Positions 1 through 57,201 of a stretch of 64,000 bases of DNA are shown one piece after another. The stretch's first letter is position 1. Each line of letters begins with the position of its first letter. A program made the position numbers and the translations under genes. A model generated the notes under the pieces. That model saw only the letters and a list, made by a program, of their open reading frames with translations. It searched no databases and was not told where the DNA came from. Origin of the DNA: Candidatus Pacearchaeota archaeon (GTDB lineage: Archaea; Nanobdellota; Nanobdellia; Pacearchaeales; GW2011-AR1); assembly GCA_018303845.1 (NCBI GenBank), contig JAGVXH010000005.1:6665-70664 (forward strand). Direction: 5' to 3'.

Positions 1-3000
1 CCAAAATTCCTTCTTTTATCGCAGCCTGAACAACCTCAGTTAACTTACTATCAGAAATGGCCTCAGTCTTTATCTCCGCACTCCTAGAATCAGAGAAACC
101 CTTAAGCAAACTTTCTTCCGAAAGACCATATTCCTTAAAAATTTCATCTGCATCACTAGATTTATCCTTAAGGAAAGAATCAGAATAACTCAAATCTATC
201 TTCCCCAAAGAAACATCCTTACTGGGCCAAAAACTAAAAAAACGCGAAAACCCAGTTTTTTCCTTCTCCCTACTCATAATATCATAAGTCCCGTCCCCCA
301 AAGGACTAACATAAATCTCATAGAGAGGACAGCTTTCACCTCCGGCGATAACAGCAGCCGTCCCAACAACATCTAAGTCACAACCTTCCAAGCTCAAATA
401 AATTTTACCAGCATCGTCACCCACAAAATCAAATTCAGCAAAATACTCTTCTTCTTCAGCAGAATCATCCACAGAAGAAACACCGCTTTCCAATTCAACA
501 GCATATCTCAAAAACAAATCCCTATTCTCATTCATCCTATCAACAATTCCACCAATCCCCTTCGCCTCAGCCTCTCTGTAATCAACTCTATTAATATATT
601 CAACAGCCGCCTTTCTCCACTCCCCAGAATTAATCAAATCAACAGTCTTCTGCCCGACCTCCATTTCTCCTCGATAAACAGCATTAACAAGTGCCTTCTT
701 TACATAGACAGGATAAGAATTATACTCTGGGAACAAAACTATTGTCCTCTTAATGTGAACATCAAGTTCATAAGCAAACAAAGCCCTCCCTTCTTCTTCA
801 GTTAACTTTCTATTTCCCGCAATTATATCATCAAAACACTGGGTATTACAATCAAATGCCCTAGAGAAAAGATCCCTTGACTCACTGGAAAGCTGATGCC
901 CAACCCCAATATGCTTCTTCCCATCAATAACATAGACACTTCCGCTAAACCCTTCCCATTTAGCAACATAATCTTTTATTTCCTGCAAACCACTATCAGC
1001 AATCTCTCCAGAATCAACAGGAATTTCTCCCTCATTCAAACAACAACATCCTCCCTCAACATCACTATATCCGCCACCCCTATTAACACAACTCTCTCCC
1101 TCGTCGCCGACAACTTCCCCAAAATCAAAACCTTGCTCATCCTTGCAATATGAATCACAAACCTTCAAAACCTCTCCTTCGCTTCCAGTCACATTAACAC
1201 CAACAAAATCATCCTCACTAACTTCCTCTCTCGCCTCAACAACTTTATCTACAGCATCCTTAATCTTAAATCCAACAAGCAACCGATAAACACTAGCCTT
1301 CAAACTCAATGCCTCAGCCCGATCCCCATTCGTCCCAGCTCCACTCATACTATCATTTCCAATAACCCTATCCAACTCACCAACAATCTTTAATCCATCC
1401 CCAACGGATTTAGAAACAGCCAACTTGTTAATATCCTGCCGAGCCTTAGAAAGCAAAGCCGCAACCCCTTCCAAATCAAGCCTCGCATTATCAATCAAAC
1501 CTCGTCGCTCATCGAGCATTTTAATCGACGCCCCACTAAAAATCTCAATCTTTTCCAAGTCACTCTTAACCGAATCAACATCCAACCAACATCTCAAATT
1601 AACTTCTCCGCAATATCCAACGTCCTTCCACCTAGAACCATGTCGCTGCATAATACCAACATCACTCTTCGACTCACAATAGCCACTAGCTCCACAATAA
1701 AATCCGACACCACATCCCGAACTACCAGACCCCCCAACCTCCGAACCACCGCTACATAAGACGTAGTCTTCTGTAGTAACTCCAGCATCAGGATTAGTCG
1801 AAGCACAAACCCGAACAATTCCTCTCATTGCAATCTCAGGGCTAATAATCTCGTCGGCTCCACTCTGCAAATTCAGCGTAGCCATGGAAAGGGCAGAAGG
1901 ATTCCCGCTAATACATTGCTTCTCCGTAGTAATATCTGTATCAGTCGCCTGCTCCTCAACATACTTCGAACTCAAATAATCCAAACCAAAGTCCGTAGTC
2001 ACCTGTTTAAAACCACATTCTTCCTGAGCATTAATCACAACACAAAGTTCCTTGTAACCACTAGGCGCCGTAAAATCAAGTGACTCATCAGCACTCGAAC
2101 CCGCAGCAATATAACCAGACTTAACAGAAACCTCAGGAGTCGAAGAATAATAACTCGTCGCAGGCGGGTCCCTCAAATAAACCTTATACTGAACACCAGC
2201 ATCCTTCCCAGCATAAATGTGATAATAAACTTTATACTGACTAGTCGACGGAACAGTTGCTCCACTAAAAAGCTTCTCACTAAACTGCGCATAAAACTGA
2301 CTCGGAGATTCCGGAGCCAACAAGTCCTCAATAAAACTTGCACTACCAGGAACACTAGTCCCCACAAATGCCTTACAAACCGAACTTCCAACTTCTTGCG
2401 TACTCCTAATATTAAACGCCTTGAAAGCATTCTGCGCATAAACATCCTTAAAATAAGAAACACTCTGCTTCATCGTATTCCAAGACTGTTCAACCAAAGC
2501 ATACTCCCCACCACCTCGAACCCGTCCTCCGCTAATCGCATATTCAATAACACCGGGAATCATCTGGTCCATCAAAGGCGACAACTGCCTCCAAAAAAAC
2601 TCACACTTGTAAATCGAAGTAATCTGGTCACAAATCCCAATCATCTCTCCTGTCTCAATACTATGGGTCAAACATTCCCTTTCGCTTTTCAAAATAGAAA
2701 GATAAGCATCAAGTCCAGCATGCACACCACTAAGACAAACCGGAATAAAAACTCCCTCCTTCGCATTCGGCAAACACAAAACCAAACTTCCAACAATCCC
2801 AGTCTGAATCACATCACTAACTGGAAACTTCCCGCCAAAATCACATCGGCTAGGAGGACAAATCACCGGGTCACAAACATTAAACATTAACTTACAGTCC
2901 GACGGACTCATAAAATCCTGACACTCAAATCCACCAATCTCACTCATCGGCGCCCCAACTTCAATCATCTCATCAAAAATACCTATCCCTCTTTTCCCAT

Positions 3001-6000
3001 ATTGTTGTGAAGCCTGCTTAATCGCCTCTCTAGCCTTTCCATAAAGTCTACTGACCTCACCAGAACTTATTCTAGGACACGGAATAAAATTCTTAACTTC
3101 CCCAACAGTATTCACATCAAAACTCTGACACAAATCGTCCCCAGTTCCAGATTGCATCAAACCATTCGTCCCAATATTACAAATTTTAAAATACCTAACA
3201 TCAGCCGAAGCAGTATACCCCTGAGGAGAATCATCAATAAAAGTCCCACCACTATTTGCAACCATCGCATACCAGCCACTATTCAAATCAAACGGCACAA
3301 CTGCGGGTAGTCCCTTGTTGTCCCCAGATTCATAATAACTAACCCTAGCCGTCCCTTTTGGCCAAACATTAGAACAATCCTTAGAATCGCTAGCCCCAGA
3401 AAAAACAACCTTATTAAAAAAATCAGGTTTCGCCACCTTTCCCCACTTACTATTATTATACTGATAAACCTCCGCAACCCCACTAACCCCATTCTTATCA
3501 TTTTCTCCCAAAATCAAAACATATTCTTCTCCGCCATAAGTAGCAACTTGAACTTTCTGAGAATCCTTCAACCCAAGCCCACTTAAATAAGAATAATCCC
3601 TAACAGTCTTACCACTTCCCTGAAAAACTTTCGTATCCTTATCAACAATTGTAACAACATCCATAGAAGTCACTCCAGTCCCAAGCTTACCAACCAAATT
3701 ACTAACGGCCTTATTCTTATCCGCCGACGCCCTCTCTGCCAATGCCACATTCCTCAAAGCATCATCCATCTCACTCTTCGCAACACTCTCAACACTCCCC
3801 TTCCCCCTAGCCGCCTCCCATGTCAAAACCGCACGAATCTGCGAAGTCGTATAAAGCGAAGAAGTAGGAACCTTAATCTCCTCATTCCCAACATTCACGA
3901 TAACAGGATTACCCACAATCTGCTTCCTCAAATCTTCCTTATACTTAGTATCATTAGAAATCCCTTCGCCCCCAAACAATCCTCCGCTATCTCCAATATT
4001 CCCCTTCTGTGCAGCTTCCATCTTTGCATTAACTCCACTCAAAACCCCAGTCATCGCCACAACATCCGCATCAATTTCCTTACTCAAAAGATTATAACAC
4101 TGAGTCCGCGTCATATCCGGATGCTCCAATGCACACTTCTTCTTGTACTCTATCATCACCTTGCTACGAGCAGCAGCTTCACCAGAAACTCCCGTAGCCA
4201 TATTCTTAATCATCAGAACCGCACTCGTCGCAAAACACGCCCCCTTAAGACCAGTCACAACATTCCCAAGCCTCTCAACAATTCCCTCCCACTTCGCAAT
4301 CGACACATTCAAATTCTTAATCATTTCAGTCGCCCTCTCCGGACTAAGCTCAATCGCTCTCTTCTCAACTCCAATCCTAAAAGTAAAATCAGCCTCACTC
4401 TTATCATGCTTAACATCCGGAATAAGCGTCACATGCGCAACCTCATTAACACGAATCTCTTCAACATAAAAATCAACACCAGCAAAATTCTCATGCGACC
4501 CTTCATTAATCCAAACAGTCCTAGACCTATCAACTCCTGTAGCCTTCGAAATCTTACTATAAAATCTAACATTAACCCTTCCAGGAGCAATCTTCAAAAT
4601 ATTAACAGTCCCAACATCCCCCCCTAAACTAACATTATCACTCTCATTTAGCCCAGAATAAAAATTAGGCCCAACCTTCAAATCAACAGTCTTCTCTCCC
4701 GAGCTGGCCGCCTTAAAATCCACAACACTAATAGACTTAAATTCATCCCCAACATAAACATTAACAAAACTCTTAGAATAATCCGTCCCATCCATCCTCG
4801 CCCTCATATCAGAAACATAACTAGCACTAGCAGCCAAAGGATACCTCTTCAAAAATAAATCCATCAATTTCTTCTGTGTCATATAATTGCCAATCTTCCC
4901 AGCCAAAACAATCTCCTCATACAAAGCCTCCTCTCCCCAAGTCCCACCAATCTCTTTCTCCTCGCTCCCATAATCTTCAACCAGCTCATCTCTAACAATC
5001 AAAACCGACTTCTCAAAATAAACATCAGAACTCTCATCTTCCAAAACATTACTAACCCCAAAAAAAGTCACACCATTTTCATACTGACCTTTTTCCAAAA
5101 TAAAACCCTCAACTCCTTGAGCCTTCATCCAATCTTCCAATACACCAGTAAAATCCGCCTCACTCCCTTTCTTGTCAGCTAGCTTATTGACCTCAGCATA
5201 AATATTCGTCATCTTCTTAACGCTGCTAATCCCCTTAGTCAAAATAACGATATCTCTTTCCTTCTCGTCAAATCCCTTGGGATACTTCCCAACATAAGAC
5301 AAATAATAATCCTGAGTAACCTTCCCTCCAACCTTCACCTCAACTTCCTCCTCAGCCTCTCCCTTAACAATCTTAAACATAACTCCTTCTCCGCTTAAAA
5401 CTAGGGGCGCAATCTTTCCAGCACCAGAACAAGAAATCGTAATCTCACCATCATTATTCCCACGAACAACCAATTTACTAACAGAACACTTCCCATCCAA
5501 AAATTTACTACCCTTCCTAACCCAAATATTACTCCCATCAACATTTAGCAAAGCCATATCTTCCTGCGTAGTGATATCCGTCAATTTCACCTTTAATCCA
5601 GCCTTACAATAAAACCCAGGCAAATAACTCGAACTACTAGTCTCCCCCTCTTTCAAAGTCAGTGTCCTCAAAACATTATCCTTACTACCCATAACCTGAA
5701 TCCTCGCAACACCATTTTCAACATCCAAAACTCTCAAATATCCTCGACCATTCCAAAAAGAACTAGCCATATAATTCTGTTGCCATTCATTCTCCCCCAT
5801 CGGTTCCAAATAATAATCTCCAGATCCAGTCCCATAAGCTTCCTCCGCATCATAAGTCATCGTGGCAGTCAAATTCCCAAAAATCCATTCCGTCATATTC
5901 GCCTCAACCTTATCCTGCTTCAAAATAATTACAACATAACCAATGTTCTCCAAAGTTGGACTCCCAAGCAAAGTAGAATAAGATTTAACAGCAGCACGAG

Positions 6001-6382
6001 CCGGATGAAAAACAACAGACCGAACACCCTCAGGATAATCTCCCTTAAACGAAATAGACTTAATCGCAGAAACCTTAATCAAAGGATTAACCTTAATCGC
6101 ATACAATTGACAAAAAACCGGAACATTTTGCTCGGCAAGTAAATCACTCGTAACAACCGACGGGCTACATCCTCCAGGCGGAATTCCAATCACAAAATCA
6201 GTCGTAGCATTACACTGTCCATCCTTCATCCCAGAAAGAATAGGCCAATAATTCTCAAAATCCCCAGCATACAAATCATCAAACGTCGGCTGATTCGCCT
6301 GCCAATTACTAGAAGGATTACTATAAGCAAAAACCCCACTCATCACAAAAATCATTCCTAACAAAAACAAAAACTTTTTCAT
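1..6382 (-). CDS. Giant secreted Cys-rich protein (>2127 aa, 3' end outside window) with a GH24/T4-like lysozyme domain at ~490-985
   Basis: Not in the ORF track because there is no in-window stop. Manual translation from ATG at 6382 gives signal peptide MKKFLFLLGMIFVMSGVFA-YSNPS; the same frame was checked at ~4270 (IAKWEGIVERLGN), ~2840 (CPPSRCDFGGKFP) and ~950 (VAKWEGFSGSVYVIDGKKHIGVGHQL). No terminated ORF is reported in this frame. Confidence 0.9.
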   Translation of the reverse strand, partial: MKKFLFLLGMIFVMSGVFAYSNPSSNWQANQPTFDDLYAGDFENYWPILSGMKDGQCNATTDFVIGIPPGGCSPSVVTSDLLAEQNVPVFCQLYAIKVNPLIKVSAIKSISFKGDYPEGVRSVVFHPARAAVKSYSTLLGSPTLENIGYVVIILKQDKVEANMTEWIFGNLTATMTYDAEEAYGTGSGDYYLEPMGENEWQQNYMASSFWNGRGYLRVLDVENGVARIQVMGSKDNVLRTLTLKEGETSSSSYLPGFYCKAGLKVKLTDITTQEDMALLNVDGSNIWVRKGSKFLDGKCSVSKLVVRGNNDGEITISCSGAGKIAPLVLSGEGVMFKIVKGEAEEEVEVKVGGKVTQDYYLSYVGKYPKGFDEKERDIVILTKGISSVKKMTNIYAEVNKLADKKGSEADFTGVLEDWMKAQGVEGFILEKGQYENGVTFFGVSNVLEDESSDVYFEKSVLIVRDELVEDYGSEEKEIGGTWGEEALYEEIVLAGKIGNYMTQKKLMDLFLKRYPLAASASYVSDMRARMDGTDYSKSFVNVYVGDEFKSISVVDFKAASSGEKTVDLKVGPNFYSGLNESDNVSLGGDVGTVNILKIAPGRVNVRFYSKISKATGVDRSRTVWINEGSHENFAGVDFYVEEIRVNEVAHVTLIPDVKHDKSEADFTFRIGVEKRAIELSPERATEMIKNLNVSIAKWEGIVERLGNVVTGLKGACFATSAVLMIKNMATGVSGEAAARSKVMIEYKKKCALEHPDMTRTQCYNLLSKEIDADVVAMTGVLSGVNAKMEAAQKGNIGDSGGLFGGEGISNDTKYKEDLRKQIVGNPVIVNVGNEEIKVPTSSLYTTSQIRAVLTWEAARGKGSVESVAKSEMDDALRNVALAERASADKNKAVSNLVGKLGTGVTSMDVVTIVDKDTKVFQGSGKTVRDYSYLSGLGLKDSQKVQVATYGGEEYVLILGENDKNGVSGVAEVYQYNNSKWGKVAKPDFFNKVVFSGASDSKDCSNVWPKGTARVSYYESGDNKGLPAVVPFDLNSGWYAMVANSGGTFIDDSPQGYTASADVRYFKICNIGTNGLMQSGTGDDLCQSFDVNTVGEVKNFIPCPRISSGEVSRLYGKAREAIKQASQQYGKRGIGIFDEMIEVGAPMSEIGGFECQDFMSPSDCKLMFNVCDPVICPPSRCDFGGKFPVSDVIQTGIVGSLVLCLPNAKEGVFIPVCLSGVHAGLDAYLSILKSERECLTHSIETGEMIGICDQITSIYKCEFFWRQLSPLMDQMIPGVIEYAISGGRVRGGGEYALVEQSWNTMKQSVSYFKDVYAQNAFKAFNIRSTQEVGSSVCKAFVGTSVPGSASFIEDLLAPESPSQFYAQFSEKLFSGATVPSTSQYKVYYHIYAGKDAGVQYKVYLRDPPATSYYSSTPEVSVKSGYIAAGSSADESLDFTAPSGYKELCVVINAQEECGFKQVTTDFGLDYLSSKYVEEQATDTDITTEKQCISGNPSALSMATLNLQSGADEIISPEIAMRGIVRVCASTNPDAGVTTEDYVLCSGGSEVGGSGSSGCGVGFYCGASGYCESKSDVGIMQRHGSRWKDVGYCGEVNLRCWLDVDSVKSDLEKIEIFSGASIKMLDERRGLIDNARLDLEGVAALLSKARQDINKLAVSKSVGDGLKIVGELDRVIGNDSMSGAGTNGDRAEALSLKASVYRLLVGFKIKDAVDKVVEAREEVSEDDFVGVNVTGSEGEVLKVCDSYCKDEQGFDFGEVVGDEGESCVNRGGGYSDVEGGCCCLNEGEIPVDSGEIADSGLQEIKDYVAKWEGFSGSVYVIDGKKHIGVGHQLSSESRDLFSRAFDCNTQCFDDIIAGNRKLTEEEGRALFAYELDVHIKRTIVLFPEYNSYPVYVKKALVNAVYRGEMEVGQKTVDLINSGEWRKAAVEYINRVDYREAEAKGIGGIVDRMNENRDLFLRYAVELESGVSSVDDSAEEEEYFAEFDFVGDDAGKIYLSLEGCDLDVVGTAAVIAGGESCPLYEIYVSPLGDGTYDIMSREKEKTGFSRFFSFWPSKDVSLGKIDLSYSDSFLKDKSSDADEIFKEYGLSEESLLKGFSDSRSAEIKTEAISDSKLTEVVQAAIKEGIL

Positions 6383-6389
6383 GGAACAA

Positions 6390-6421
6390 CCCAAACCCCC
6401 AAACCCCCAAACCCCCAAACC
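6390..6421. repeat. Short tandem repeat (AAACCCCC)x3 plus partial, just upstream of the giant gene start
   Basis: Read directly from the sequence. Confidence 0.85.
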
Positions 6422-6446
6422 ACCACCATGAATAAAATTTTCAATT

Positions 6447-8297
6447 TTATTCATAGTACACCTCGACAATCTCGTCATCAACCCTCTCCGCATTCGCAGC
6501 CAATCCCTCAATACTCGTCGGCAAACCAAACAAAGGCACATTCAAATTCAACTCTTTAGAATTAGCCAAATCTTCCGAAGTAATATATTCCTGCACCTTA
6601 CCGCCACCAACAACCGCAAAATCAATATCCATCTCTGGCATATTAATATCATAACATTTCTCACTCATCCCTCCAAACATTCCAGAAAGACCAGACTCTG
6701 GAACATCCACACATTCCTTTCTACTCGTCGCCGGAAACTTCAAACTCGAACCATCATAAACATGAACACTCACATTATAATAACCCTCAATCAATTCGAT
6801 AGAATCCATTTCAGGATAAAGAACCGTAACAGAATAATCACTCGAAACAAAAGTCACAACGCCACGATCAACTTCACCCAAATCCAAACTCAAATTATAC
6901 TTCTTCTTCAAAACCACATTCGCAAGCATCTCCTCATTAGTAGAAATCTGATATTTAGCCTGAGCATATCCGGGAGCATCAACAATAATAAATCCATTAA
7001 CGCACTGCGGAAATTCTCCCCTCAAAACAGCCTCGCCAGAATAAAGCTTCGTCTCTCCAATCTGACAAACAGCGTCTAAACACTTAAAACTAATCCGCGC
7101 CTCGACTGATTCCAAATCAGTATCATAAGTATAAACATCAACTTTCTGATTCTTAAATTCACAAACCTTAGACTCAATATTTCTGCCATTAGTCGTTGGC
7201 ATCGCCTCTCGTGCCTGATTCTTAGAAATCACAACACCAACAGGAAACTGAAACAATTCTTCATCATCATAAAACTGCACCATCACAGGAAAATTAACAT
7301 CATAAACAAAGTGGTAAGGAACATAACAAAAACCTAAAATCCCCATCCCTTCTTGCAACCCAACAGGTCGCGCAACCTTGTCCCCATACATTTCAATCCT
7401 AGTAGTCCAATCTCTCATATACAAAAAACTCAATTGCTCATCAACATCCAAACCACTATCTTCGACAAAATATTCACGCCCCTTAGACGACAAATCATAA
7501 TAATCCCCATCAAGTCGAATCGAACCAATATTAGCAACCAAGGCATCTTTCAATTCACTGGCGACATTCTCCTCAACAAAAACCCGCGGAACACAACCAA
7601 TCTCAATTCCATCCATCGGGGCATAAAGCCTCAAAACATCCAATGCATAATTCTCCAAAAACATATTAGCCTTTTCGTAATTATAAACTTCTAATGCCAA
7701 ACCAAAAAATTTACCAAGTTTACTCTTGATTCCAAAACTATGAGAACCAACAACAACAGAACTATTTCCCTTAAAAATATTAATCTTATTCAAAACCTCA
7801 ACTTCAATATCTAAATCATTTATACGAACAGCCGTTTGAACATTTTTATCGTCAACAAAAACATCAAAACCTTGCATCTCAAAATCAGAAAAATCACAAA
7901 GTCCAACACGAGCCGAAACATATTCACCAAGTTCATTTTCCATAGAAGTCTTCGTAGGAATATTTTCCCGAAGCATATTATTTCCAGAAACATACATCCA
8001 ATAAGGAACACCCTGTCCCATAAAATCCAAATGACTACTAAAAGGCATATAAGCACTTCCAGGAAAAAATTCTCCGACATCAATTCGCCCTCCCTGTTCA
8101 CCCAAAAGTCTTACCCCATCCTCAGCCTGATCCTGCAAACAAGAAACATAATAATCATAAACAGGCAAAAGCTCTTCAGGAACACTTTCCCCGAAACTTC
8201 CACGCAAAGTAAAATATGCAACTAAAGCCCCAACTATCAACACCGCCAAAATAATAAAAATCGTCACTTGCCCCTTTTTCCTTCTAATTTCTACCAT
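6447..8297 (-). CDS. Class III signal peptide (pilin-like) surface protein, 616 aa
   Basis: N-terminus MVEIRRKKG|QVTIFIILAVLIVG (basic leader, G|Q, hydrophobic helix), then a large Cys-containing extracellular region. Confidence 0.8.
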   Translation of the reverse strand: MVEIRRKKGQVTIFIILAVLIVGALVAYFTLRGSFGESVPEELLPVYDYYVSCLQDQAEDGVRLLGEQGGRIDVGEFFPGSAYMPFSSHLDFMGQGVPYWMYVSGNNMLRENIPTKTSMENELGEYVSARVGLCDFSDFEMQGFDVFVDDKNVQTAVRINDLDIEVEVLNKINIFKGNSSVVVGSHSFGIKSKLGKFFGLALEVYNYEKANMFLENYALDVLRLYAPMDGIEIGCVPRVFVEENVASELKDALVANIGSIRLDGDYYDLSSKGREYFVEDSGLDVDEQLSFLYMRDWTTRIEMYGDKVARPVGLQEGMGILGFCYVPYHFVYDVNFPVMVQFYDDEELFQFPVGVVISKNQAREAMPTTNGRNIESKVCEFKNQKVDVYTYDTDLESVEARISFKCLDAVCQIGETKLYSGEAVLRGEFPQCVNGFIIVDAPGYAQAKYQISTNEEMLANVVLKKKYNLSLDLGEVDRGVVTFVSSDYSVTVLYPEMDSIELIEGYYNVSVHVYDGSSLKFPATSRKECVDVPESGLSGMFGGMSEKCYDINMPEMDIDFAVVGGGKVQEYITSEDLANSKELNLNVPLFGLPTSIEGLAANAERVDDEIVEVYYE

Positions 8298-33800: not shown

Positions 33801-34388
33801 ATGCCCATTACAACAGAGGAAGCCAATAAAATCAAAGAACACCTTCTAACCCAACTAGACAACTTCCCAGAAGACAAACGAGAACAAATCGCAGAACAAA
33901 TCAATTCAATGTCAGACGAACAAATCGAAGCTTTCGTTAAACAAAACAAACTAACTCATCTCGGTGGACAATGCATCTTCTGTTCAATTATAGCAAACAA
34001 AACCAAGTCCTACAAAATAGCCGAAGATAAAGACAACATAGCAATCCTAGAACTTATGCCAATAAGTAAAGGGCACTCTCTCATCGTACCAAAAGAACAT
34101 CTAGAAAAAACCTCAGAATCAACAAACTCCCTAGTGCAAGAAGTATCAAAAAAATTAAAGAAAAAATTCTCGCCACAAGAAATCAAAATCAACGAAATAA
34201 AAATAATGGGCCATGCACTCCTGGAAATAATTCCCATATACGGGGATGAGACCGAAAAAAGACAAGCCTCAGAAGAAGAGCTAAAATCCCTCCAAGAAGA
34301 AATACTAAAACCCTCAGAAATCAAAATAGAAAAACCTCAGGAAATCAAAATAGAAGAAATCCCAATCCTCCCTCCAAGAATACCCTAA
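33801..34388 (+). CDS. HIT-family protein (degenerate histidine triad)
   Basis: CIFCSII, PISKGHSLIVPKEH; the triad region reads GHALLEIIP. Confidence 0.8.
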   Translation: MPITTEEANKIKEHLLTQLDNFPEDKREQIAEQINSMSDEQIEAFVKQNKLTHLGGQCIFCSIIANKTKSYKIAEDKDNIAILELMPISKGHSLIVPKEHLEKTSESTNSLVQEVSKKLKKKFSPQEIKINEIKIMGHALLEIIPIYGDETEKRQASEEELKSLQEEILKPSEIKIEKPQEIKIEEIPILPPRIP

Positions 34389-35209
34389 ATCCCAAACAGC
34401 CCCAAAAACCAACCCTTCAAAAAAACATATCCTAAAAACGCAATCAAAAATGCCGGAACAAACGGCAACCCTTCCTTAATCATAACCCTCTTCTCCTTCC
34501 TCAATAACTCAATATCATCTAGCGACAACCCATCCCAATTCGCCTTAACAACTCTTCGTCCAACCTTAACATCTTCAACCAACCAATCCCCCTCTCGAAG
34601 TTCAAAACCACTAACTTCCCTAATCATCGAAACATTTTCGAGCCCCTTAGCAAAAACATAAAGAAACGGAAAAATAAAAAGACAAACTCCAATCAAGAAA
34701 AAAATAAAATTTTTAACACCAAAAATCATCAAAACAGATGCCAACAAAACAACTCCAACAAGCCATCTCTTTTCGCTAACCAGCCTTCCCATTTCCGCAT
34801 TAATTTTATCTCGATTCAAATACCATAAAACACCAGAATAACAAAGCCCATAGACAGATCCCGCGACCATCAAAAACAAACAAAAAATTCCAACATTAAT
34901 TACCGATTCATAAAAACTAGCACCCAAAAAAAACACCGTCATCGCAAACAACAACTTCGCATCCCCCCCAGCAAAAACCCGACCATAATAAAAAATATTC
35001 ATAATAACAAACATAATTACCAATAAAAACCCAACATGAAAAATAATATCCAACTCATCTCTCAAAATTGCACCATAAAAAACAAAGACCAAACTAGAAA
35101 CAAGCAAAAACAAATTCAACCAATTATCAACCTCACGCCTTTTCAAATCCTGCATACTAGCAACAACAATCCCACAAAAAAACAACCAAAACAAAAACCC
35201 AAACTCCAT
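34385..35209 (-). CDS. Prepilin peptidase (A24 family, PibD/FlaK-like)
   Basis: ASMQDLKRREVDN and FAGGDAKLL aspartate motifs; C-terminal GLPFVPAF. Confidence 0.92.
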   Translation of the reverse strand: MEFGFLFWLFFCGIVVASMQDLKRREVDNWLNLFLLVSSLVFVFYGAILRDELDIIFHVGFLLVIMFVIMNIFYYGRVFAGGDAKLLFAMTVFFLGASFYESVINVGIFCLFLMVAGSVYGLCYSGVLWYLNRDKINAEMGRLVSEKRWLVGVVLLASVLMIFGVKNFIFFLIGVCLFIFPFLYVFAKGLENVSMIREVSGFELREGDWLVEDVKVGRRVVKANWDGLSLDDIELLRKEKRVMIKEGLPFVPAFLIAFLGYVFLKGWFLGLFGI

Positions 35210-35284: not shown

Positions 35285-35482
35285 TTAATACTTTCTCTTC
35301 TTAACCTTGCCAAAACCTTTTTTCTTTTCTGACAAAACCTTCCCCATCTTATCCACCTTCTCACCCTCAACCTCATCAACATTAGCACTCCGAAACTTTC
35401 CTCCTACCTTATACCCACGATTAATCCGCTTCCTCTTCAAATCACCCTTCGTCGTCCGCTTATCACATCCACCAAAATCCAT
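35285..35482 (-). CDS. Small basic hypothetical protein at the end of the pilin operon
   Basis: Start overlaps the upstream stop; Lys-rich. Confidence 0.5.
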   Translation of the reverse strand: MDFGGCDKRTTKGDLKRKRINRGYKVGGKFRSANVDEVEGEKVDKMGKVLSEKKKGFGKVKKRKY

Positions 35483-36045
35483 TACTTCAAAACCTCCACA
35501 ACATACTTCCCACTTTTTCGTGTAATCAAATATTCTCTATCAAAAACAAAATCATATTCAACGGGAAAACCAATCTTCACATCTTCCGAAACTTTAAGCA
35601 AACCTCTTTTCCCAGTTTCCTGTCTTTTCAAAACCAAACCATCACTAACTTCCTCGACAGAATACAAAACATCTCTAAAAAAACCATTCTCATCAAATCC
35701 AGTCCCAACCTCTACCTTAGAACCTCTCCAAAACAAATCCTTCAAAATAAAATCCTTCATCTCTTGACTTAAACCCGAAACAAACTCTTTCTCAAATTTC
35801 TCCTTGTCAATCCCACTCTTCTCAACCGAGTCCAACACCAACTCTTTTTCTCTCATCTCAAAAATATCCAACTCATCTCTAATCTCCAAAACAGCAAGCG
35901 GAGAAACTAGAGCAATACTAAGTTTATTCTGATGATTAGAATAAGACAAAAGAACCATCCCGCATAAAACCAAAGTCAACAAAACAATAGGAATCGCCAT
36001 AAAAACCCCGCCCCTTTTATCTCGACAAAAATTAACTCTACCCAT
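35482..36045 (-). CDS. Class III signal peptide (pilin-like) protein
   Basis: Reassigned start MGRVNFCRDKRG|GVFMAIPIVLLTLVLCG. Confidence 0.75.
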   Translation of the reverse strand: MGRVNFCRDKRGGVFMAIPIVLLTLVLCGMVLLSYSNHQNKLSIALVSPLAVLEIRDELDIFEMREKELVLDSVEKSGIDKEKFEKEFVSGLSQEMKDFILKDLFWRGSKVEVGTGFDENGFFRDVLYSVEEVSDGLVLKRQETGKRGLLKVSEDVKIGFPVEYDFVFDREYLITRKSGKYVVEVLK

Positions 36046-36319
36046 TCTCAAAACCTCCAGCAACAAGAGCATCATCAACATCATAATCTCCAGCGACATA
36101 AAACCGCGCCTTAACCAACCTCTCATAATCCTCATTCATATAAATAAAAAATTCTCCCTCTTCTTCACTCTCTCCAAAATAATTAGCCAAGACAGGCTCC
36201 TCTGCAAAAATCTTAAACGGCTCACTCAAAAGAATAAATCCTCCAAGAATAATCGCAACAAGAATAATCGCAAAAAACATAGAAATAAGTGTCCCAAGTT
36301 GTCCCTTCTTACTTTTCAT
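36038..36319 (-). CDS. Class III signal peptide (pilin-like) protein
   Basis: MKSKKG|QLGTLISMFFAIILVAIILG. Confidence 0.8.
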   Translation of the reverse strand: MKSKKGQLGTLISMFFAIILVAIILGGFILLSEPFKIFAEEPVLANYFGESEEEGEFFIYMNEDYERLVKARFYVAGDYDVDDALVAGGFENG

Positions 36320-36848
36320 AATTAATCAAAACCTCCACCTTAACAAAACCATCCCTAGTCACTCCATTCTCGAAAACAAACGCCTTATACTCATCACTAA
36401 AATAGCCAGGATTATACTTCGCAATCTTTTCAACATTCTCATTATTCCATCCGCTAACCGCATTCCCAGTAACAACCACCTTCTCGAACAAATCCCTAAC
36501 CCAAAGTAACCCCTCATCTCCATCCTTTAGATAAACTTTCCTAGCATCACTATCAACCTCAACCCCAACATAAATCCTTTCACTCTCTTCAATCCCACAA
36601 TGCCTCAAAATAAAACTTCTATCTTCTTCCTTAATATTATCCAAATTCAAAACACCCTCAGGGAATAAACACTCCACAATCGCCCTACCAAGTAATAAAG
36701 ACTCAGCATCTCGAACGCTAATATCATAAGCATAATAAACAGAAGAGGCCCCAAAAATAACAACCGCAATGGCCGAAATCAAAACCAAAACCGGAACCAT
36801 CTCAACAATATCGCCAACCCCGCTTCCTCGTTTATTCATCCAAAACAT
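36309..36848 (-). CDS. Class III signal peptide (pilin-like) protein
   Basis: MNKRG|SGVGDIVEMVPVLVLISAIAVVIF. Confidence 0.75.
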   Translation of the reverse strand: MFWMNKRGSGVGDIVEMVPVLVLISAIAVVIFGASSVYYAYDISVRDAESLLLGRAIVECLFPEGVLNLDNIKEEDRSFILRHCGIEESERIYVGVEVDSDARKVYLKDGDEGLLWVRDLFEKVVVTGNAVSGWNNENVEKIAKYNPGYFSDEYKAFVFENGVTRDGFVKVEVLINYEK

Positions 36849-36888
36849 CCTCCATGTTTAATCCAACTTCTTTAAATCGCCAAGCCCC

Positions 36889-36958
36889 CAGCGAAGCTGA
36901 GCTTTTCCACATCGTGAGCTTTTCCACATCGTGAGCTTTTCCACATAGTGAGCTTTTC
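36889..36958. repeat. CAGCGAAGCTG mini-hairpin followed by the 17-mer tandem repeat TGAGCTTTTCCACAT(C/A)G x3.6
   Basis: Units at 36898, 36915 and 36932, partial at 36949. Confidence 0.93.
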
Positions 36959-36983
36959 TGAAAATGAAAATTTTCCTCTTTCA

Positions 36984-37343
36984 TCATTTAACTCTAACCA
37001 CAAATTTATCTAAATCCTCTTCAACAAAAACTTCATTACTAGAAAAATAAGGATACCCCTTACTAGAAGGAAGCCCATCAACCTTAACATAAATTCTCCC
37101 ATCTCTGACCTCGACCCCATCAACTAACCCATTCAAACTCTTTTTCACAATCTCAAAACTAAACCCACTCTCACTAGCATCAATCAAAAGCGCCAACTCT
37201 TTTTCCAAAACCTGCTGTTTAATTCCTCTCGCCTCAAGCCTTCCCTCTAGTGCAAGAAAAAAAACAGCAAATAACAATCCAACTAAAATAATCTGAATAA
37301 CAGCCTTAGATAAAATATCCCCCTTCTTACCAAATCGTCTCAT
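36984..37343 (-). CDS. Class III signal peptide (pilin-like) protein
   Basis: MRRFGKKG|DILSKAVIQIILVGLLFAVFF; ATGA coupling to the upstream gene. Confidence 0.8.
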   Translation of the reverse strand: MRRFGKKGDILSKAVIQIILVGLLFAVFFLALEGRLEARGIKQQVLEKELALLIDASESGFSFEIVKKSLNGLVDGVEVRDGRIYVKVDGLPSSKGYPYFSSNEVFVEEDLDKFVVRVK

Positions 37344-38323
37344 CCGGGAATTCCCTCCCATTCATCACAAAAACCAACGCTAGCAGATTCTATCTCATCA
37401 ACCCTCTTCTCATATTCAATCCAATTTTTTAATTGCAAAAATTCCCAAAAACTCGCAGATGGACTAAAAATAAAATTATTCTGCACTTCCTTAAACGAAT
37501 CATCTTTTTGTCCAGATTGAAAATAAAATAAATAGGGGACATATTCGCCAAACCCTTTCGACTCACCCACAACCAATTGAATACCCGCAACAACACCATA
37601 ATTAATCATCAAATCTCCCTCGTCAATATTAAACCTCTCTGGCAGAGAAACATTAATACTACTCATCTTCGCCTCAAAAGTTACCCCATTAGCCCTATTC
37701 ACCAAGTCAACACTAGCCCAATCCCACTTCTTACTTTCAACACTAAAATCTTCTCCATTTAAATTAAAAGGAACAGCATTTCCAAAATTAAGAGCCGAAA
37801 AACTTTTTCCAGAATCCTGCAAATAAGAATAATAAGTAAAACCTTCTTTCATTTTCAAATCCAAAGCATCCTTAATATTAATCTCAACCTTATTATCCCG
37901 AGCATATTTCTTCGCCTCGTCCGTAAAATGAATTCTAGCACACGGAACACATACACTCGATTTAAAAAATTTAGCAGGAAACACATTCAAATCTCCATTC
38001 CCATAAAGGTTCCAACATTCTGCCATAGACTCTGCAATCTTCTCTTGAGCAACCTTAACATTTCTAACATCCGCCTCACTCACCTCAACAACCATCGTTT
38101 TACATTTCAAAGGGAAACTAGATTTAAATTCAAGCTCATCTGCCCCAAGTCCAGAGTCGGGAAGCGTCGCCCTCAACTGAACACTCTGCCAACAAACCTC
38201 CTTATCTCCCTCGTCACCAACCCAAAACTCCTGATAAATAAAAAAAATCGAAATAGCCAAAACCAACACTCCAAGTATCAAATACAAAAGAATCCCATAC
38301 ATATAGTCCCCCTTCTTATCCAT
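37340..38323 (-). CDS. Class III signal peptide (pilin-like) Cys-rich protein
   Basis: MDKKG|DYMYGILLYLILGVLVLAI; C..SV, PLKC, IAESMAECW..YG.G, CVPCARI.F. Confidence 0.8.
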   Translation of the reverse strand: MDKKGDYMYGILLYLILGVLVLAISIFFIYQEFWVGDEGDKEVCWQSVQLRATLPDSGLGADELEFKSSFPLKCKTMVVEVSEADVRNVKVAQEKIAESMAECWNLYGNGDLNVFPAKFFKSSVCVPCARIHFTDEAKKYARDNKVEINIKDALDLKMKEGFTYYSYLQDSGKSFSALNFGNAVPFNLNGEDFSVESKKWDWASVDLVNRANGVTFEAKMSSINVSLPERFNIDEGDLMINYGVVAGIQLVVGESKGFGEYVPYLFYFQSGQKDDSFKEVQNNFIFSPSASFWEFLQLKNWIEYEKRVDEIESASVGFCDEWEGIPG

Positions 38324-38409
38324 AAACAAGAAACCCAAACCAACTTAATAAAACTTACCCAGCCCAAACATCCATAAAAAACCCCAACCAAAAACCCAAA
38401 ACCTCTCAA

Positions 38410-38820
38410 CAAAAATCCGTGCTAATCCGTGAACTATTTTTTATTAACCAAACAACCTCAATCCCAAAAACGAAAATTCGCGTACATTCGCGCAAATTCA
38501 CGGCTAAATAATTCTCCATCACTCCCCAAGTCCCCATTATTTTACCAATCTACAACAAACAAAACCATCATCTCTCCATGAGAAATTATGCGTGTCGAAG
38601 ACACCATAATTTTTTATGGAACCCAATCTCTAATGTCTAATGTCTAATCTCTAATGTCTAATCCTTATTCCAATCCGTGCTAGTCCGTGAGTAAATAATT
38701 AACAACCATTCCCAAAAAAATCCATGTAATCCATGTTCTAATTTTCCCCAAGCCCACCAAGTCAACCCTTACATCACCCAAACAAAATCCGCGTAATCCG
38801 TGTAATCTGCGGCCAAATAA
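38410..38820. repeat. Repeat-rich intergenic region: five clusters of degenerate 9-10-mers, one cGAAg hairpin (38575-38624) and (TAAT(G/C)TC)x5
   Basis: AATCCGTGCTAATCCGTG, ATTCGCGTACATTCGCGCAAATTCACGG, AATCCGTGCTAGTCCGTG, AATCCATGTAATCCATG, AATCCGCGTAATCCGTGTAATCTGCGG. Confidence 0.85.
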
Positions 38821-38945
38821 ATAACCAAACAAAAACTTACCCAGCAGCCCTAGAAACAATATTCCGTATAGCAAAACCAACAGCAACAATAACCAGAATA
38901 ACCAATATCCATTTAATAGTCTCACCCGAAACCAATTCCCCCCGC

Positions 38946-39473
38946 TTACTTAGTGGAAAAAACATAGCCTCCTCCATCTTTCCAAATCTCAACCCGACCA
39001 CCCTCAACAATCTCCCATGTACCAGAACTCAAATCACTAGCATCAATACTATGCACACTGCCAACAATACTCCGAGCAGACATACTCAAATCCAAACACT
39101 CTCTACAATAATTTTGCTCATCCTCTCCATCCCAATAACAAACACAAATCACATTATCCCCAATCTTCTTATTCTTAAAATATTCCTCTCCTTCAACATC
39201 ACCAAAACTAGCAACACTGCCAAAATAAACCAAATAAAACTTCATATCCTTATCCCCCCTATCAAACATAATAACTTCGCCAACCCCGCCCTTATCCGCA
39301 ATACCAACCCCTTCCTCTATAACCTTCAAATATCCCTCACTAATTTTATCGGCTTCATCATACAAACCATAAAAACTAACCGCAAAAATAATCAAAACAG
39401 CAACAACAGCAACAGCAATAATAAGCTCAATAGCAGAATCACTAACCACCTCTCCTCTTTTCTCCATCAACAT
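38946..39473 (-). CDS. Class III signal peptide (pilin-like) protein
   Basis: MEKRG|EVVSDSAIELIIAVAVVAVLIIF; CVC...C..C. Confidence 0.8.
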   Translation of the reverse strand: MLMEKRGEVVSDSAIELIIAVAVVAVLIIFAVSFYGLYDEADKISEGYLKVIEEGVGIADKGGVGEVIMFDRGDKDMKFYLVYFGSVASFGDVEGEEYFKNKKIGDNVICVCYWDGEDEQNYCRECLDLSMSARSIVGSVHSIDASDLSSGTWEIVEGGRVEIWKDGGGYVFSTK

Positions 39474-41290
39474 CGCCTATCCAAAAATTTAGAAATAACA
39501 CTGGCCCTATAAACCTCATCAAAAAAATACTTACCAAGTCTATAAGTCCCCTCATCTCCACTCTCAATCCAACTAGAACCATTCCACGTAACAAGCAACA
39601 CCGGATAATATTCCAAATCAACTCTATGAAAAGCATCATTAACCCAAAACTCAAAATCACTTACAGTCTTTCCTGCCCCAGACTGCTTCAACCCAAACTT
39701 AGATTCTCCCTTTGAAAAACTTAAAACTGCCTTCCCTTCACTTTGCTCAACTCCAACAACAAACTCTTCACCCTTCAAAACAACTTTCTCCCCAGCAAAA
39801 GACTTCTTCAATGCCTCAATATCCGAACCAGAAACACTAGAAGAAACAAGAAGTCTCGTACGCAATCCAGCAAAAATATCTTTCAATCTCGCCAAATCAG
39901 CCTCACTATCCAACTCACCAGAGTCCCCATAATTCTCAGCCGAAACAAAATTTTCATTTTCCAAAACCTTGTAAAACGCAACCTCATACCCAGCATCCTC
40001 CTGACTCATCTTATTTATCCCAAATCTCCATTCCCTCCAAACATTATCAACATCTCCTTTGTGCCTTCCATAAATCTCCGCAAGCATTTTTTCCACAACA
40101 ATCTTATACATCATCTTATCCTTATCGCTATTCAAATCCCCACTTCCCCCATAATCATATCTAGAGACATCCTCCCCAGTCTTAGGATCCTTCTTATCCC
40201 TAGGCATATCCTCTCCCCCCCATTTCAAAAAAGTATTTCCCTGCTCAACAAACCTTTCAAGATATCGCTTCTCCCTGTCATCCCAATTCATTCCTTCCTT
40301 TTTCAAATACCCTTGAGCCAAACTTTTAGTCAACTGAAGCGGGCCATAAGCCGTAGAAGAAGAACCATCTATCTTTGTCCTAATCCAAGGATCATAGCCA
40401 TCTTTCAACCGACCGCTATTATAATCAAAATATCCCCTATGTTCCGCAGCCATAACAGCATCATAAAGAGTCTCCGTTTTCAGATACTCACTCTTCACCT
40501 TCTTATCTTCAACTTTCTCTCCAAAAAGCAAACTCTCTAATCCCTTGCCCTCACCCTTCAAGTACTCAACCCCAACCTTATTCTCAGAAAGTCTCCAATT
40601 AACCTTATCATCATTAAAAATATCTTTAACCTCATCATAAAACAAAGTCAAAGCCTCATCGTCATTATCAATCTCCCTAACAAACTTTCCATTTTTCCAA
40701 AATTCCCAAATACCATTTTGCCAACGTAATTCAACATTCGCATCTCCACCACTTCCATCCCCAATTAAACTAAACTGCATAGTGGAGCCTTCATCCATTA
40801 AATCCCTAACATCAACACTTTGCAAAATACCAATCCCGACATGATAAGCCTCCCAATCAAACAACGCAGAATCTTCACTACCAACAATCAAATTATTATA
40901 TTCTACCCATTCCCCATTTGTCAATTTCCTAAACTTTCCTTTCATCATCTCATAATCATCCAAACCACCTCCCTCAAATGTACAAGTCCTATCACGACAC
41001 TGCTTAAACCCAATATCGTCGTCTTTAATACCCAACTTCTTCAACATCTCACTTCCCAAAACAAAATCTGAAATCCTATAATCGATACACTCCTCAAAAG
41101 GCCCTCCGTTATTACCTAGCGACATCAACATACCTAAAACCTCATTTGCCTTTCCCCCAATCTCCTCTATTTCAGGAATTATCCCATTCCCAATAAGAAA
41201 AGAAAGAAAAAGCAAAACCACAACTAAAATAATAATTTTAATAAGTCTGTTAAAGGCCTCATTCCCCTTTTTCCCATTCAGCAAATTCAT
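39467..41290 (-). CDS. Class III signal peptide (pilin-like) protein with an internal lysozyme-fold (SLT/GH23-like) domain
   Basis: MNLLNGKKG|NEAFNRLIKIIILVVVLLF; internal LYDAVMAAEH...SSSTAYGPLQLT...GDVDNVWREWRFG...Y at ~39960-40480. Confidence 0.72.
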   Translation of the reverse strand: MNLLNGKKGNEAFNRLIKIIILVVVLLFLSFLIGNGIIPEIEEIGGKANEVLGMLMSLGNNGGPFEECIDYRISDFVLGSEMLKKLGIKDDDIGFKQCRDRTCTFEGGGLDDYEMMKGKFRKLTNGEWVEYNNLIVGSEDSALFDWEAYHVGIGILQSVDVRDLMDEGSTMQFSLIGDGSGGDANVELRWQNGIWEFWKNGKFVREIDNDDEALTLFYDEVKDIFNDDKVNWRLSENKVGVEYLKGEGKGLESLLFGEKVEDKKVKSEYLKTETLYDAVMAAEHRGYFDYNSGRLKDGYDPWIRTKIDGSSSTAYGPLQLTKSLAQGYLKKEGMNWDDREKRYLERFVEQGNTFLKWGGEDMPRDKKDPKTGEDVSRYDYGGSGDLNSDKDKMMYKIVVEKMLAEIYGRHKGDVDNVWREWRFGINKMSQEDAGYEVAFYKVLENENFVSAENYGDSGELDSEADLARLKDIFAGLRTRLLVSSSVSGSDIEALKKSFAGEKVVLKGEEFVVGVEQSEGKAVLSFSKGESKFGLKQSGAGKTVSDFEFWVNDAFHRVDLEYYPVLLVTWNGSSWIESGDEGTYRLGKYFFDEVYRASVISKFLDRRC

Positions 41291-56586: not shown

Positions 56587-57201
56587 ATGGATAAAAGGGA
56601 AATAGCAACAATAATCCTAGCAACAATAATCATGGCTCTAGCAGCCTCGTTCAAAGATACCTCAATATTCTATGTAGCCACTCTATCCTTCCTAATAATA
56701 ATATCAGTAAATATTATCGCAAAAAAAATTGTAGGCTTCCATTTCGAAACCGATGTCAAAACAAAATTTTGGACATGGTACAGATTCGGACTCAGGCAAG
56801 ACATGCATTTCAAAAGTCCAGTCCCAATGGCATGGCTACCTCTTCTATTAGCTCTCTTCACAAAAGGGCACCTTTTATGGCTCGGTATCTTAGAATTTGA
56901 CATTGCGGCAAAAGCAGAACGAGTTGCAAAAAGACATGGGATATATAGATTCACTCAAGTCACAGAATGGCACATGGCATGGATAGCAATCTGGGGAATC
57001 ATAGCAAATCTAATATTCGCCATCGGAGCCTACGCATTAGGATTTGAGCTCTTTGCAAAACTCTCAATTTACTTCATAGCATGGAACACAATCCCAATCG
57101 GCAGACTCGACGGAGCAAAAATATTCTATGCAAATCGAGCTCTTTGGACAATAATATTCGCGATAACTGCAATTGTACTAGGATGGGGAATAGTCATATA
57201 A
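56587..57201 (+). CDS. M50/site-2 protease-like membrane protein lacking HExxH
   Basis: NTIPIGRLDGAKI (NxxPxxxLDG motif); the expected zinc helix reads SVNIIAKK. Confidence 0.65.
   Translation: MDKREIATIILATIIMALAASFKDTSIFYVATLSFLIIISVNIIAKKIVGFHFETDVKTKFWTWYRFGLRQDMHFKSPVPMAWLPLLLALFTKGHLLWLGILEFDIAAKAERVAKRHGIYRFTQVTEWHMAWIAIWGIIANLIFAIGAYALGFELFAKLSIYFIAWNTIPIGRLDGAKIFYANRALWTIIFAITAIVLGWGIVI

Follow-up and report, generated by a model that had tools for sequence, protein, structure and literature searches.

The closest described relatives of the gene reported here are the large murein-transglycosylase-domain proteins of DPANN archaea that Castelle et al. (2021, Front Microbiol; PMC8204110) grouped as fam00969. 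In the parts of that paper available to us, these proteins reach up to ~3,000 amino acids (aa), carry an SLT/GH23 domain, are predicted to be extracellular and are restricted to small-genome Pacearchaeota and Woesearchaeota. They were proposed to bind and degrade bacterial walls, with possible episymbiosis, and earlier notes on them in three genomes are cited. The same reading was given to a 'large lytic murein transglycosylase' by Vigneron et al. (2022; PMC9723730), and is repeated in the accessible sections of PMC10936187 and PMC11537232. Strock et al. (2025, PLoS Biol; PMC12352652), in the portions available, report that archaeal peptidoglycan hydrolases kill bacteria, as shown for a haloarchaeon, and that homologs of such hydrolases are prominent in Nanoarchaeota. 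The giant protein described here is encoded at the left edge of a 64,000-nucleotide stretch of DNA, analysed as a whole and hereafter called the window (G000:C3:6665-70664). It is, by description, a member of the fam00969 family as the available text defines it, having 2,292 aa, a signal peptide, an SLT domain and homologs among Pacearchaeota, Woesearchaeota and Nanoarchaeota.

As far as their texts were covered by our search, the fam00969 accounts mention the SLT domain only; GH24, exchangeable tails, a hydrolase-less majority, a partner gene and the locus do not appear in them, and the supplements may hold more. To the published description the present locus adds a two-gene unit with a prepilin-like partner, a fixed and vertically inherited site, an exchangeable tail that carries hydrolases only sometimes, and a natural GH24 variant with His for Thr. 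In the literature searched, outside of which lay supplements and subscription papers, neither the partner gene nor a fixed core site free of immunity gene and cassettes was found, and nothing relevant was listed for GH24 in DPANN archaea or for lysozyme in Pacearchaeota. The genome itself comprises 1.09 Mb in 10 contigs and is 80% complete. Archaeal markers lie in or beside the window (S3Ae, S8e, TFIIB, RadA, aIF2-alpha and an RPA-like protein), homologs of the giant protein are named Candidatus Pacearchaeota, Woesearchaeota, Nanoarchaeota or 'archaeon', and the source is a small-genome, Pacearchaeota-like DPANN archaeon.

The giant gene lies on the minus strand. A frame without stop extends from window position 6541 to the left edge (2,180 codons), and the ATG at 6382 is the likely start, being followed by a basic and then hydrophobic N-terminus (MKKFLF...; Kyte-Doolittle hydrophobicity 1.78 over 19 aa). 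Residues 1-22 (window 6317..6382, minus strand) would form a Sec-type signal peptide, as judged from hydrophobicity and sequence only and not by a dedicated predictor. A longer start at window 6541 was considered and rejected, as it overlaps the end of the partner gene, precedes the signal peptide and lacks homolog support. Past the left edge of the window the frame runs for another 165 codons to a stop, and translation of the full gene from the adjoining sequence gives a protein of 2,292 aa (P0002), for which an identical protein cluster (P0003) is present in public databases. No internal repeats were found in the protein. An earlier, sequence-only reading of this DNA had reported an open frame of more than 2127 codons with a signal peptide. 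Both were recovered, the end coordinate of that reading being the start codon at 6382, and the frame passes from the scaffold into the lysozyme region without stop or frameshift. The observation of a giant, secreted-type open frame with a Cys-rich scaffold and a distal lysozyme-like module is therefore confirmed; that reading did not recognise that the gene runs on the minus strand, that an SLT domain forms the true C-terminus, that a partner gene is conserved beside it, or that the family was already in print.

Most of the protein is a lineage-specific scaffold (aa 23-1703; window 1274..6316, minus strand) of no known family. It gave no Pfam or NCBIfam match, and a scaffold profile of 1,691 positions produced 0 PDB sequence matches at E ≤ 1. 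A word-indexed search, with 7,998 scored candidates of 1,260-4,011 aa, returned at least 712 homologs at E ≤ 1e-3. In nearly all of the top 120 homologs, BLAST homology to the query stops at about aa 1703-1725, and in a MAFFT alignment of 120 rows the columns are filled to 0.94-1.0 across most of aa 1-1700, falling under 0.5 beyond that. The conserved N-terminal ~1,700 aa that had been expected among orthologs are thus present. Thirty Cys located from aa 57 to aa 1598 are invariant, each retained in 95% or more of the 120 aligned rows, in keeping with the Cys-rich blocks noted from the letters of the sequence. The alignment is most conserved at aa 1150-1500. The most conserved family stretch, aa 1149-1359 (window 2306..2938, minus strand; 0.67-0.84 to consensus), is rich in Cys and Gly and contains two hydrophobic segments (aa 1186-1204 and 1213-1231). 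A further, moderately hydrophobic segment (aa 707-725; window 4208..4264, minus strand), identified by hydrophobicity, falls in the highly conserved block aa 651-750 and is the internal hydrophobic segment previously placed near 4200-4260.

A structural model of aa 941-1703 was built from 45 rows, including the 44 shortest homologs. Its mean predicted local distance difference test (pLDDT) score was 66.3 and its predicted template modelling score 0.31, with beta-rich parts at 80-93; the scaffold would consist here of beta-sandwich-like domains plus a helical end. The best Foldseek matches of this model were generic beta-sandwich domains, with E 3e-3 to 2e-2. In a wide VIA search only the last ~70 residues matched, to generic helical bundles with Z up to 9.8, a range that the tool calls uninformative for helices. 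The ESM Atlas held no usable match and no model for aa 23-940 or aa 1140-1530. With this many homologs and no known fold, the scaffold amounts to sizeable structural dark matter.

The scaffold gives way, where the homology of relatives ends by BLAST and alignment, to an acidic linker that contains Gly and Cys (aa 1704-1789; window 1016..1273, minus strand). The stretch that follows (aa 1790-1975; window 458..1015, minus strand) is, on the evidence of its relatives, its model and its fold matches, a divergent domain of the GH24 (T4-lysozyme) fold. A phmmer search against PDB sequences returned T4 lysozyme entries (best E 8.9e-4, ~115 residues). HMMER with aa 1790-1975 against 1.84 billion representatives found 660 proteins at E ≤ 1e-3, of which 225 at E ≤ 1e-10; most of these relatives are small, with the domain at their C-terminus. 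The nearest small GH24 relatives are mostly without names, a word-based homolog search with the module alone gave one protein, with the JGI name 'GH24 family phage-related lysozyme', and NCBIfam gave nothing for the module. Alignment A1 (119 rows) combines the module with 118 of the 150 listed relatives, namely those of 150-350 aa. In it, 93 of the 119 rows match PF00959 at E ≤ 0.01 (best 7.1e-12), and the query row does not.

The fold of the module was predicted with high confidence. In an AlphaFold model of aa 1790-2292, pLDDT is 95-98 across the GH24 module (model residues 10-180). Foldseek returned at least 500 PDB matches at E ≤ 1e-3, and the highest-ranking of these are without exception T4 lysozyme entries or fusions of it (best E 1.8e-5, prob 1.00, template modelling score on target 0.60-0.70). 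VIA-align, run over 48,161 representative chains, placed the module on T4 lysozyme with Z 13.0, a root-mean-square deviation of 2.7 Å, 142 aligned residues and 23% identity, followed by phage endolysins (Z 12.6), the SpmX muramidase domain (12.1), pesticin (12.0), P22 lysozyme (12.0) and a fungal GH24 protein (9.7). Model, Foldseek and VIA together indicate that the module adopts the T4-lysozyme fold.

The consensus of A1 across the active-site region reads E-G-x4-V-Y-x-D-x2-G-x2-T-I-G-I-G-H. Glu1810 (window 953-955, minus strand), the putative catalytic residue, stands in the E-G motif, and this position is Glu in 114 of the 119 rows. The VIA alignment places model residues 11..171 on T4 lysozyme 1..156, with model residue 21 at about residue 11. 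We take the catalytic Glu to correspond to Glu11 of T4 lysozyme, with Asp20 and Thr26 as the other sites. At the family's Thr place the alignment puts His1824 (window 911-913, minus strand): Thr occurs here in 107 and His in 3 of the 119 rows, while the query and all four sister giants carry His. The best PDB sequence match is itself a T4 lysozyme entry with His at the aligned Thr position. An engineered Thr-to-His change at that site is reported to make T4 lysozyme a transglycosidase, and lytic transglycosylases of T4-lysozyme fold need only the Glu. Among known phage genomes the module found only 33 Vibrio-phage records, each covering 44% of it or less. Because these matches are partial only, 'phage-type', the term of the sequence-only reading, is to be kept for fold and family and dropped for recent origin. 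The same GH24 subfamily was also seen inside giant proteins without this scaffold, for example at residues 5478-5630 of P0146 (6,756 aa).

After the GH24 module comes a second acidic linker and a small domain, predicted by the low-confidence model to be beta-rich (aa 1976-2127 within the window, 1..457, minus strand). The whole middle piece, ~150 aa (aa 1976-2130), was modelled at pLDDT 50-69 and has no family match in Pfam or NCBIfam. The protein ends, beyond the window, in an SLT/GH23 domain (aa 2131-2292; G000:C3:6171-6656, minus strand; stop codon 6168-6170). The second acidic linker and further domain noted previously are therefore a small beta-rich piece and then an SLT domain outside the window. 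PF01464 matches aa 2145-2219 with 38.9 bits against a cut-off of 21.3 (E 7.5e-10; profile positions 9-82 of 117), there is a partial match to the MltC model, and the NCBIfam transglycosylase models are all far sub-threshold. Q-Q-E-S at aa 2158-2161 lies inside the PF01464 match and is followed by a GLMQ motif; we take the Glu-Ser (aa 2160-2161) to be the catalytic motif of lytic transglycosylases and GLMQ to be its associated motif. The fold-search lists for the tail model were filled by the GH24 module. From the GH24 module and the SLT domain together it follows that the protein probably ends in two different glycan-strand-cleaving modules.

What follows the scaffold differs widely across the family. 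The 121 tails, 7-1,269 aa long, fall into 54 single-linkage groups, 42 of which are singletons. Of the 120 homologs, 21 picked for tail length were scanned with Pfam: SLT occurred in 6, DUF1615 in 2 and nothing in 11, with one each of Amidase_3, Polysacc_deac_2, Hydrolase_2 (SleB type) and a sub-threshold Peptidase_M15_4. One of these long-tailed homologs had a weak TPR match in the scaffold. By these domain matches, the long tails carry several classes of predicted wall-active enzymes. A FastTree was computed for the scaffold core from 104 rows, namely the query and 103 of 119 homologs (P0019 and the 15 longest were dropped for size). On it, no fewer than 11 changes of tail type are required, compared with a possible minimum of 4 and a mean of 21.9 after shuffling. 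The query's clade (n = 13) comprises 8 members with SLT, 4 with GH24 and 1 with both. Since tail types switch on the scaffold tree, tails are exchanged among close kin. Two earlier proposals, a variable C-terminus and a scaffold with exchangeable distal modules, are borne out by these groups and switches and by the conserved ~1,700 aa that precede the varying tails.

Two further observations concern DUF1615. In P0013 (2,970 aa) it shares one tail with SLT, Amidase_3 and Polysacc_deac_2, and in P0022 it forms the tail. Its occurrence alongside wall enzymes is a hint of a wall-related role for DUF1615; a literature search for it, judged by listing, gave nothing informative.

A second conserved gene lies directly upstream of the giant gene. 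The partner (P0274, 616 aa; window 6447..8297, minus strand) has, by its translation, a prepilin-like N-terminus and a predicted globular extracellular part, and it gave no match in Pfam, NCBIfam or PDB sequences (the last at E ≤ 1); no similarity between partner and giant protein was found. At least 1,586 homologs were found, all 'hypothetical'. Class III (prepilin-type) signals are described, in the available part of PMC13705601, as a basic N-terminus, a Gly at the cleavage site and a hydrophobic helix of ~20 residues. The partner, with R-R-K-K-G-Q and then a hydrophobic run, fits this pattern by its sequence, as judged without a dedicated predictor, and [KR][KR]GQ plus ~20 hydrophobic residues recurs in 62 loci. 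Ten invariant Cys are found in the rest of the protein. One partner homolog (L039:5073-6917) is interrupted by one in-frame stop codon, which could reflect a pseudogene, recoding or a fault in the assembly.

The genomic setting of the pair was examined in one genome per species across 185,579 species, which gave 378 stretches with a scaffold relative, of which 80 loci were kept. The partner gene is directly upstream on the same strand in 68 of these 80 loci, and the other 12 end before that position; it is thus present in 68 of 68 testable loci. In many loci the partner stop overlaps the giant ATG (TGATG or TAATG). The surroundings are likewise stable, with S3Ae upstream in 40 of the 80 loci, TFIIB downstream in 45 and S8e downstream in 38; here, TFIIB and S8e are the next downstream genes, on the opposite strand. 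The giant gene is single copy in its genome. No second copy of any tail module was found in this 80%-complete genome, and no immunity gene candidate at the locus. Across the phylum the scaffold occurs in 88 of 401 sampled genomes, in 25 of 27 in the window's family and in 10 of 10, 12 of 12 and 14 of 15 in three others, and many families are without it (for example 0 of 42 and 0 of 29). Given the fixed locus, the single copy and the lineage-wide presence, the partner and giant pair is a vertically inherited core operon of certain lineages and not a mobile weapon. A mobile-element or provirus reading was rejected on synteny.

In the window, partner stop and giant ATG are separated by a spacer of 64 nt (6383..6446, minus strand) with G5 runs separated by TTT on the coding strand, a G-quadruplex-like repeat. 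As a conserved regulatory element this spacer was rejected, a G4-like run being found in 0 of 45 related loci. Some records of the pair or its members carry other labels: a homolog lies on L003, a contig of 3.6 kb binned with Omnitrophota, L082 is a 379-kb 'Paceibacterota bacterium' contig with the gene pair on which S3Ae is also encoded, and P0015 and P0303 are named 'Methanococcoides sp. SA1'. Bacterial or unrelated labels on records of this archaeal pair are likely binning or labelling errors.

Binding between the two proteins was examined by complex prediction, using partner aa 36-616 and giant aa 23-330, the N-terminal domain being chosen as a guess, with custom alignments. The median score was 0.58 (runs 0.57, 0.58 and 0.64), against 0.00 for the best of three controls; the runs share at least 47% of contacts, and partner pLDDT is at least 60. 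In the benchmark, 58 of 80 solved complexes attained this mark, as did 2 of 110 mismatched pairs; with custom alignments these counts hold only roughly. Only 7 of the 80, and both of the passing mismatches, scored 0.60 or less. The complex score together with the coupled operon raises the odds of binding modestly, and the model weakly suggests that the partner binds the N-terminal domain of the giant.

Taken as a whole, we lean towards a reading in which a surface-held giant, presented by its partner, cuts the wall of a bacterial neighbour for attachment, access or feeding, and regard it as somewhat probable. The giant would be a Sec-secreted, disulfide-rich cell-surface protein of 2,292 aa, with a signal peptide, a scaffold of ~1,680 aa, an acidic linker, the GH24 module, a second acidic linker with a small domain, and the SLT domain in that order. 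The prepilin-like helix of the partner would hold the partner in the membrane or in a type-IV-filament-like structure, and binding of the partner to the N-terminal domain would keep the giant on the archaeal surface. The scaffold could then hold the C-terminal modules away from the cell, where the two modules would locally open the peptidoglycan of a bacterial host or prey. Through such an opening the archaeon might attach, reach the bacterial membrane or scavenge fragments of the wall, and the tail would be exchanged over evolutionary time, presumably to suit the envelope of the partner cell. An immunity protein would not be needed, as archaea have no murein.

Several observations weigh against this reading. 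By sequence and hydrophobicity, the giant has no membrane anchor of its own. The complex prediction is a weak pass obtained with a guessed domain. The most conserved part of the scaffold, aa 1149-1359, was modelled as long helices at pLDDT 26-47, the least confident part of the model, and Foldseek gave 0 matches at E ≤ 1e-3 for the model of aa 941-1703; with a model of this length, poor in places, the lack of a fold match is no evidence of a new fold. At the C-terminus, the SLT part was modelled at pLDDT 31-46, the alignment being shallow there, and the SLT and middle parts of the tail model range over 31-69.

The GH24 module itself is non-canonical. Pfam found no family in aa 1750-1990 even at E ≤ 10, and no match in the part of the giant protein encoded in the window; the module itself does not reach the PF00959 cut-off. 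The query reads Y-V-I-D-G-K-K-H-I-G, its loop between the Tyr and the IG-x-GH motif being one residue shorter. The consensus Asp position is Ile in the query, and the Asp next to it gives way to Asn or Gly in three of the four sister giants. With such a site the module may catalyse a changed reaction, or it may be inactive. The earlier assignment of this region to GH24/T4 lysozyme thus stands for the fold, the relatives and the conserved Glu, and falls for the direct PF00959 match and for the Asp and Thr; the profile search that had been named as its test is, for the query alone, formally a refutation.

The distribution of hydrolases is a further difficulty. Custom profiles, applied to 120 tails that included the query and an identical copy, detected SLT in 26, GH24 in 6 and the middle domain in 6. 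Among 48 tails from species-representative genomes, SLT was found in 5 and GH24 in 2; these tails came from 73 loci with a complete 3′ end, 24 of which had an unmapped scaffold end and included four that were SLT-like by BLAST. By such profile matches, only a minority of tails bear recognisable wall hydrolases. Since most tails are without a recognisable hydrolase, scaffold and partner need a function independent of murein cutting.

A bolder version of the same idea, which we regard as doubtful, takes the partner and giant pair as a host-contact organ of Pacearchaeota-type archaea. The partner would form a mount at the base or tip of a type IV filament, aa 1149-1359 would be a membrane-inserting or fusion-like part by which the host membrane is opened, and the exchangeable tail would act as a 'drill bit' suited to the envelope of the host, equipped with murein hydrolases in the case of bacterial hosts. 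That aa 1149-1359, conserved, hydrophobic and rich in Gly and Cys, might be a membrane-active or oligomer-dependent part is a guess. If true, the pair would be a new kind of cross-domain cell-penetration machine.

The absence of an anchor could also be explained by a giant that is freely released as an antibacterial or feeding lysin, with a scaffold that only stabilises or targets it. Two wall-cutting modules in a giant protein without its own anchor fit this explanation, and there is precedent in the haloarchaeal secreted hydrolases that kill bacteria (PMC12352652, in the part available). However, the scaffold, its 30 invariant Cys and the translationally coupled partner are kept with or without a hydrolase, and the complex prediction weakly favours partner binding (0.58 against a best control of 0.00). 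A released lysin therefore seems unlikely to us.

The scarcity of hydrolases points to another possibility, a structural envelope component, such as an S-layer-like or surface-coat pair, with enzymatic tails as accessories for wall-fragment scavenging. Consistent with a coat are the single copy, the presence in 25 of 27, 10 of 10, 12 of 12 and 14 of 15 genomes of four families, the fixed core site beside ribosomal-protein and TFIIB genes, the beta-sandwich domains in the model and the fact that most tails are without hydrolases. Three arguments, each weak, oppose it: the scaffold occurs in 88 of 401 genomes and most other families of the phylum sample lack it; there is no anchor and no known S-layer domain; and the very high conservation of an internal, hydrophobic, Cys/Gly-rich stretch would be unusual in a coat protein. 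We consider this explanation improbable as well.

If a wall is indeed cut, it might be that of an archaeal host, for example methanogen pseudomurein or another glycan. The DPANN hosts known so far are archaea, as the accessible text of PMC8204110 also states; the GH24 site is non-canonical, and most tails belong to no recognised family. Other tails, however, have murein-specific domains (Amidase_3, SleB-type Hydrolase_2 and an M15 peptidase). Moreover, the beta-1,4 MurNAc-GlcNAc bond attacked by GH23 and GH24 enzymes is missing from pseudomurein. An archaeal-wall target is thus very unlikely.

The conserved N-terminal part, the variable C-terminal part and the switching of tails in close kin are also what a strict polymorphic toxin would show, directed against kin or competitors and accompanied by silent cassettes and immunity genes; the sequence-only reading had drawn that parallel. 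It fails at the locus, where the gene is single copy at a fixed, non-mobile site between ribosomal-protein and TFIIB genes, the downstream TFIIB and S8e genes are on the other strand without an immunity candidate, and no spare cassette or second tail-module copy was found in the 80%-complete genome; the modules would moreover attack murein, which archaea lack, and we give this explanation hardly any weight. Least probable of all, to the point of being negligible, is a viral or proviral virion lysin (a tail or tape-measure-like protein with lytic domains) that ended up in an archaeal bin: phage lysins commonly contain GH24 and SLT modules and some homolog records are bacterially labelled (L003, L082), but the same pair stands between archaeal housekeeping genes in dozens of genomes, L082 included, with no phage genes adjacent and with phage matches that are partial throughout (33, each 44% of the module or less).

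The reading we favour, a surface-held giant that cuts a bacterial neighbour's wall, bears on the lifestyle of these archaea. We know of no Pacearchaeota or Woesearchaeota of this kind with a known host. Giant proteins of this family provide the chief genomic indication that some DPANN archaea have bacteria, and not archaea, as their hosts, and a second muramidase module and a conserved prepilin-like partner make the proposed role of the family testable.

The remainder of the window contains other genes that may relate to the cell surface. A prepilin (class III signal) peptidase homologue is encoded at 34385..35209 on the minus strand (PF01478 Peptidase_A24, E 7.5e-9), and it could process the partner protein, to judge from sequence. 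Adjoining it on the same strand, within 35482-41290, are five pilin-like open reading frames (35482-36135, 36309-36848, 37340-38338, 38946-39473 and 39467-41290) recognised by their N-terminal pattern of Lys/Arg-Gly and then a hydrophobic run. A T2SSE-type ATPase lies at 50546-52837. Together, the prepilin peptidase, the pilin-like frames and the ATPase look like a type-IV-filament locus in a DPANN genome. At 44235-47348 (minus strand) a 1,037-aa protein combines an Ice_binding-like domain (E 2.1e-62), a Big_13 Ig-like domain and a signal-like N-terminus, and is another large surface protein. A patatin-like phospholipase (57081-58139, plus strand; E 1.2e-30) could be relevant to membrane attack or lipid scavenging by a host-dependent archaeon.

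Left of the window on the same contig, beyond TFIIB and S8e, an open reading frame of more than 1,319 aa with GLUG motifs is cut by the contig end (L002:2-3958, minus strand; contig G000:C3), and sequence related to it lies downstream of the giant gene in 10 of the 80 loci. The composition of the window is very strongly biased: the GC skew of the plus strand is -0.02 to -0.62 in every 2-kb bin and sums to -12.6 over 64 kb, and the minus strand is G-rich throughout and bears most of the long open reading frames. Near-identical DNA was found, beyond the possible source samples, in groundwater and soil metagenome runs from four studies, with no RNA run listed among the holders.

Comparison with characterised systems places each part of the pair near something known. 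The GH24 module shares the fold, the conserved Glu and the IG-x-GH motif with T4 lysozyme and the GH24 endolysins (PF00959), but has no direct Pfam match, a shorter loop, no Asp and a His for Thr, and unlike the small endolysins it is internal to a giant archaeal protein. The SLT domain resembles Slt70 and MltC, family-1 lytic transglycosylases (GH23), in its PF01464 match and in its Glu-Ser and GLMQ motifs; it differs in being the C-terminal module of an archaeal giant, in a part of the model at pLDDT 31-46. Polymorphic toxins such as CdiA, Rhs and MafB, as described in the available text of Zhang et al. (2012; PMC3482391), likewise join a conserved N-terminus to a variable C-terminal effector, whereas the giant locus is single copy, has neither immunity gene nor cassettes, and its effectors would hit a polymer that the producer lacks.

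For the pair as such, the nearest parallels are non-pilin proteins that type IV filament systems display, namely bacterial PilY1 with its minor pilins and the class III signal proteins of the archaeal 'bindosome' (PMC13705601, as far as its text was available). Here, a large prepilin-like partner stands beside a large Sec-type protein, and a prepilin peptidase, a secretion ATPase and several pilin-like frames are encoded in the window. There is no sequence or fold relation to PilY1 or the binding proteins, and the pair lies ~28-46 kb from the filament cluster in the window. The hydrolases of Strock et al. (PMC12352652), in the portions covered, are like the giant in being archaeal enzymes aimed at bacterial walls. 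Those proteins are modular and were found via their peptidoglycan-binding domains, whereas here the predicted enzymes are carried by a scaffold protein of 2,292 aa that is encoded together with a partner gene.

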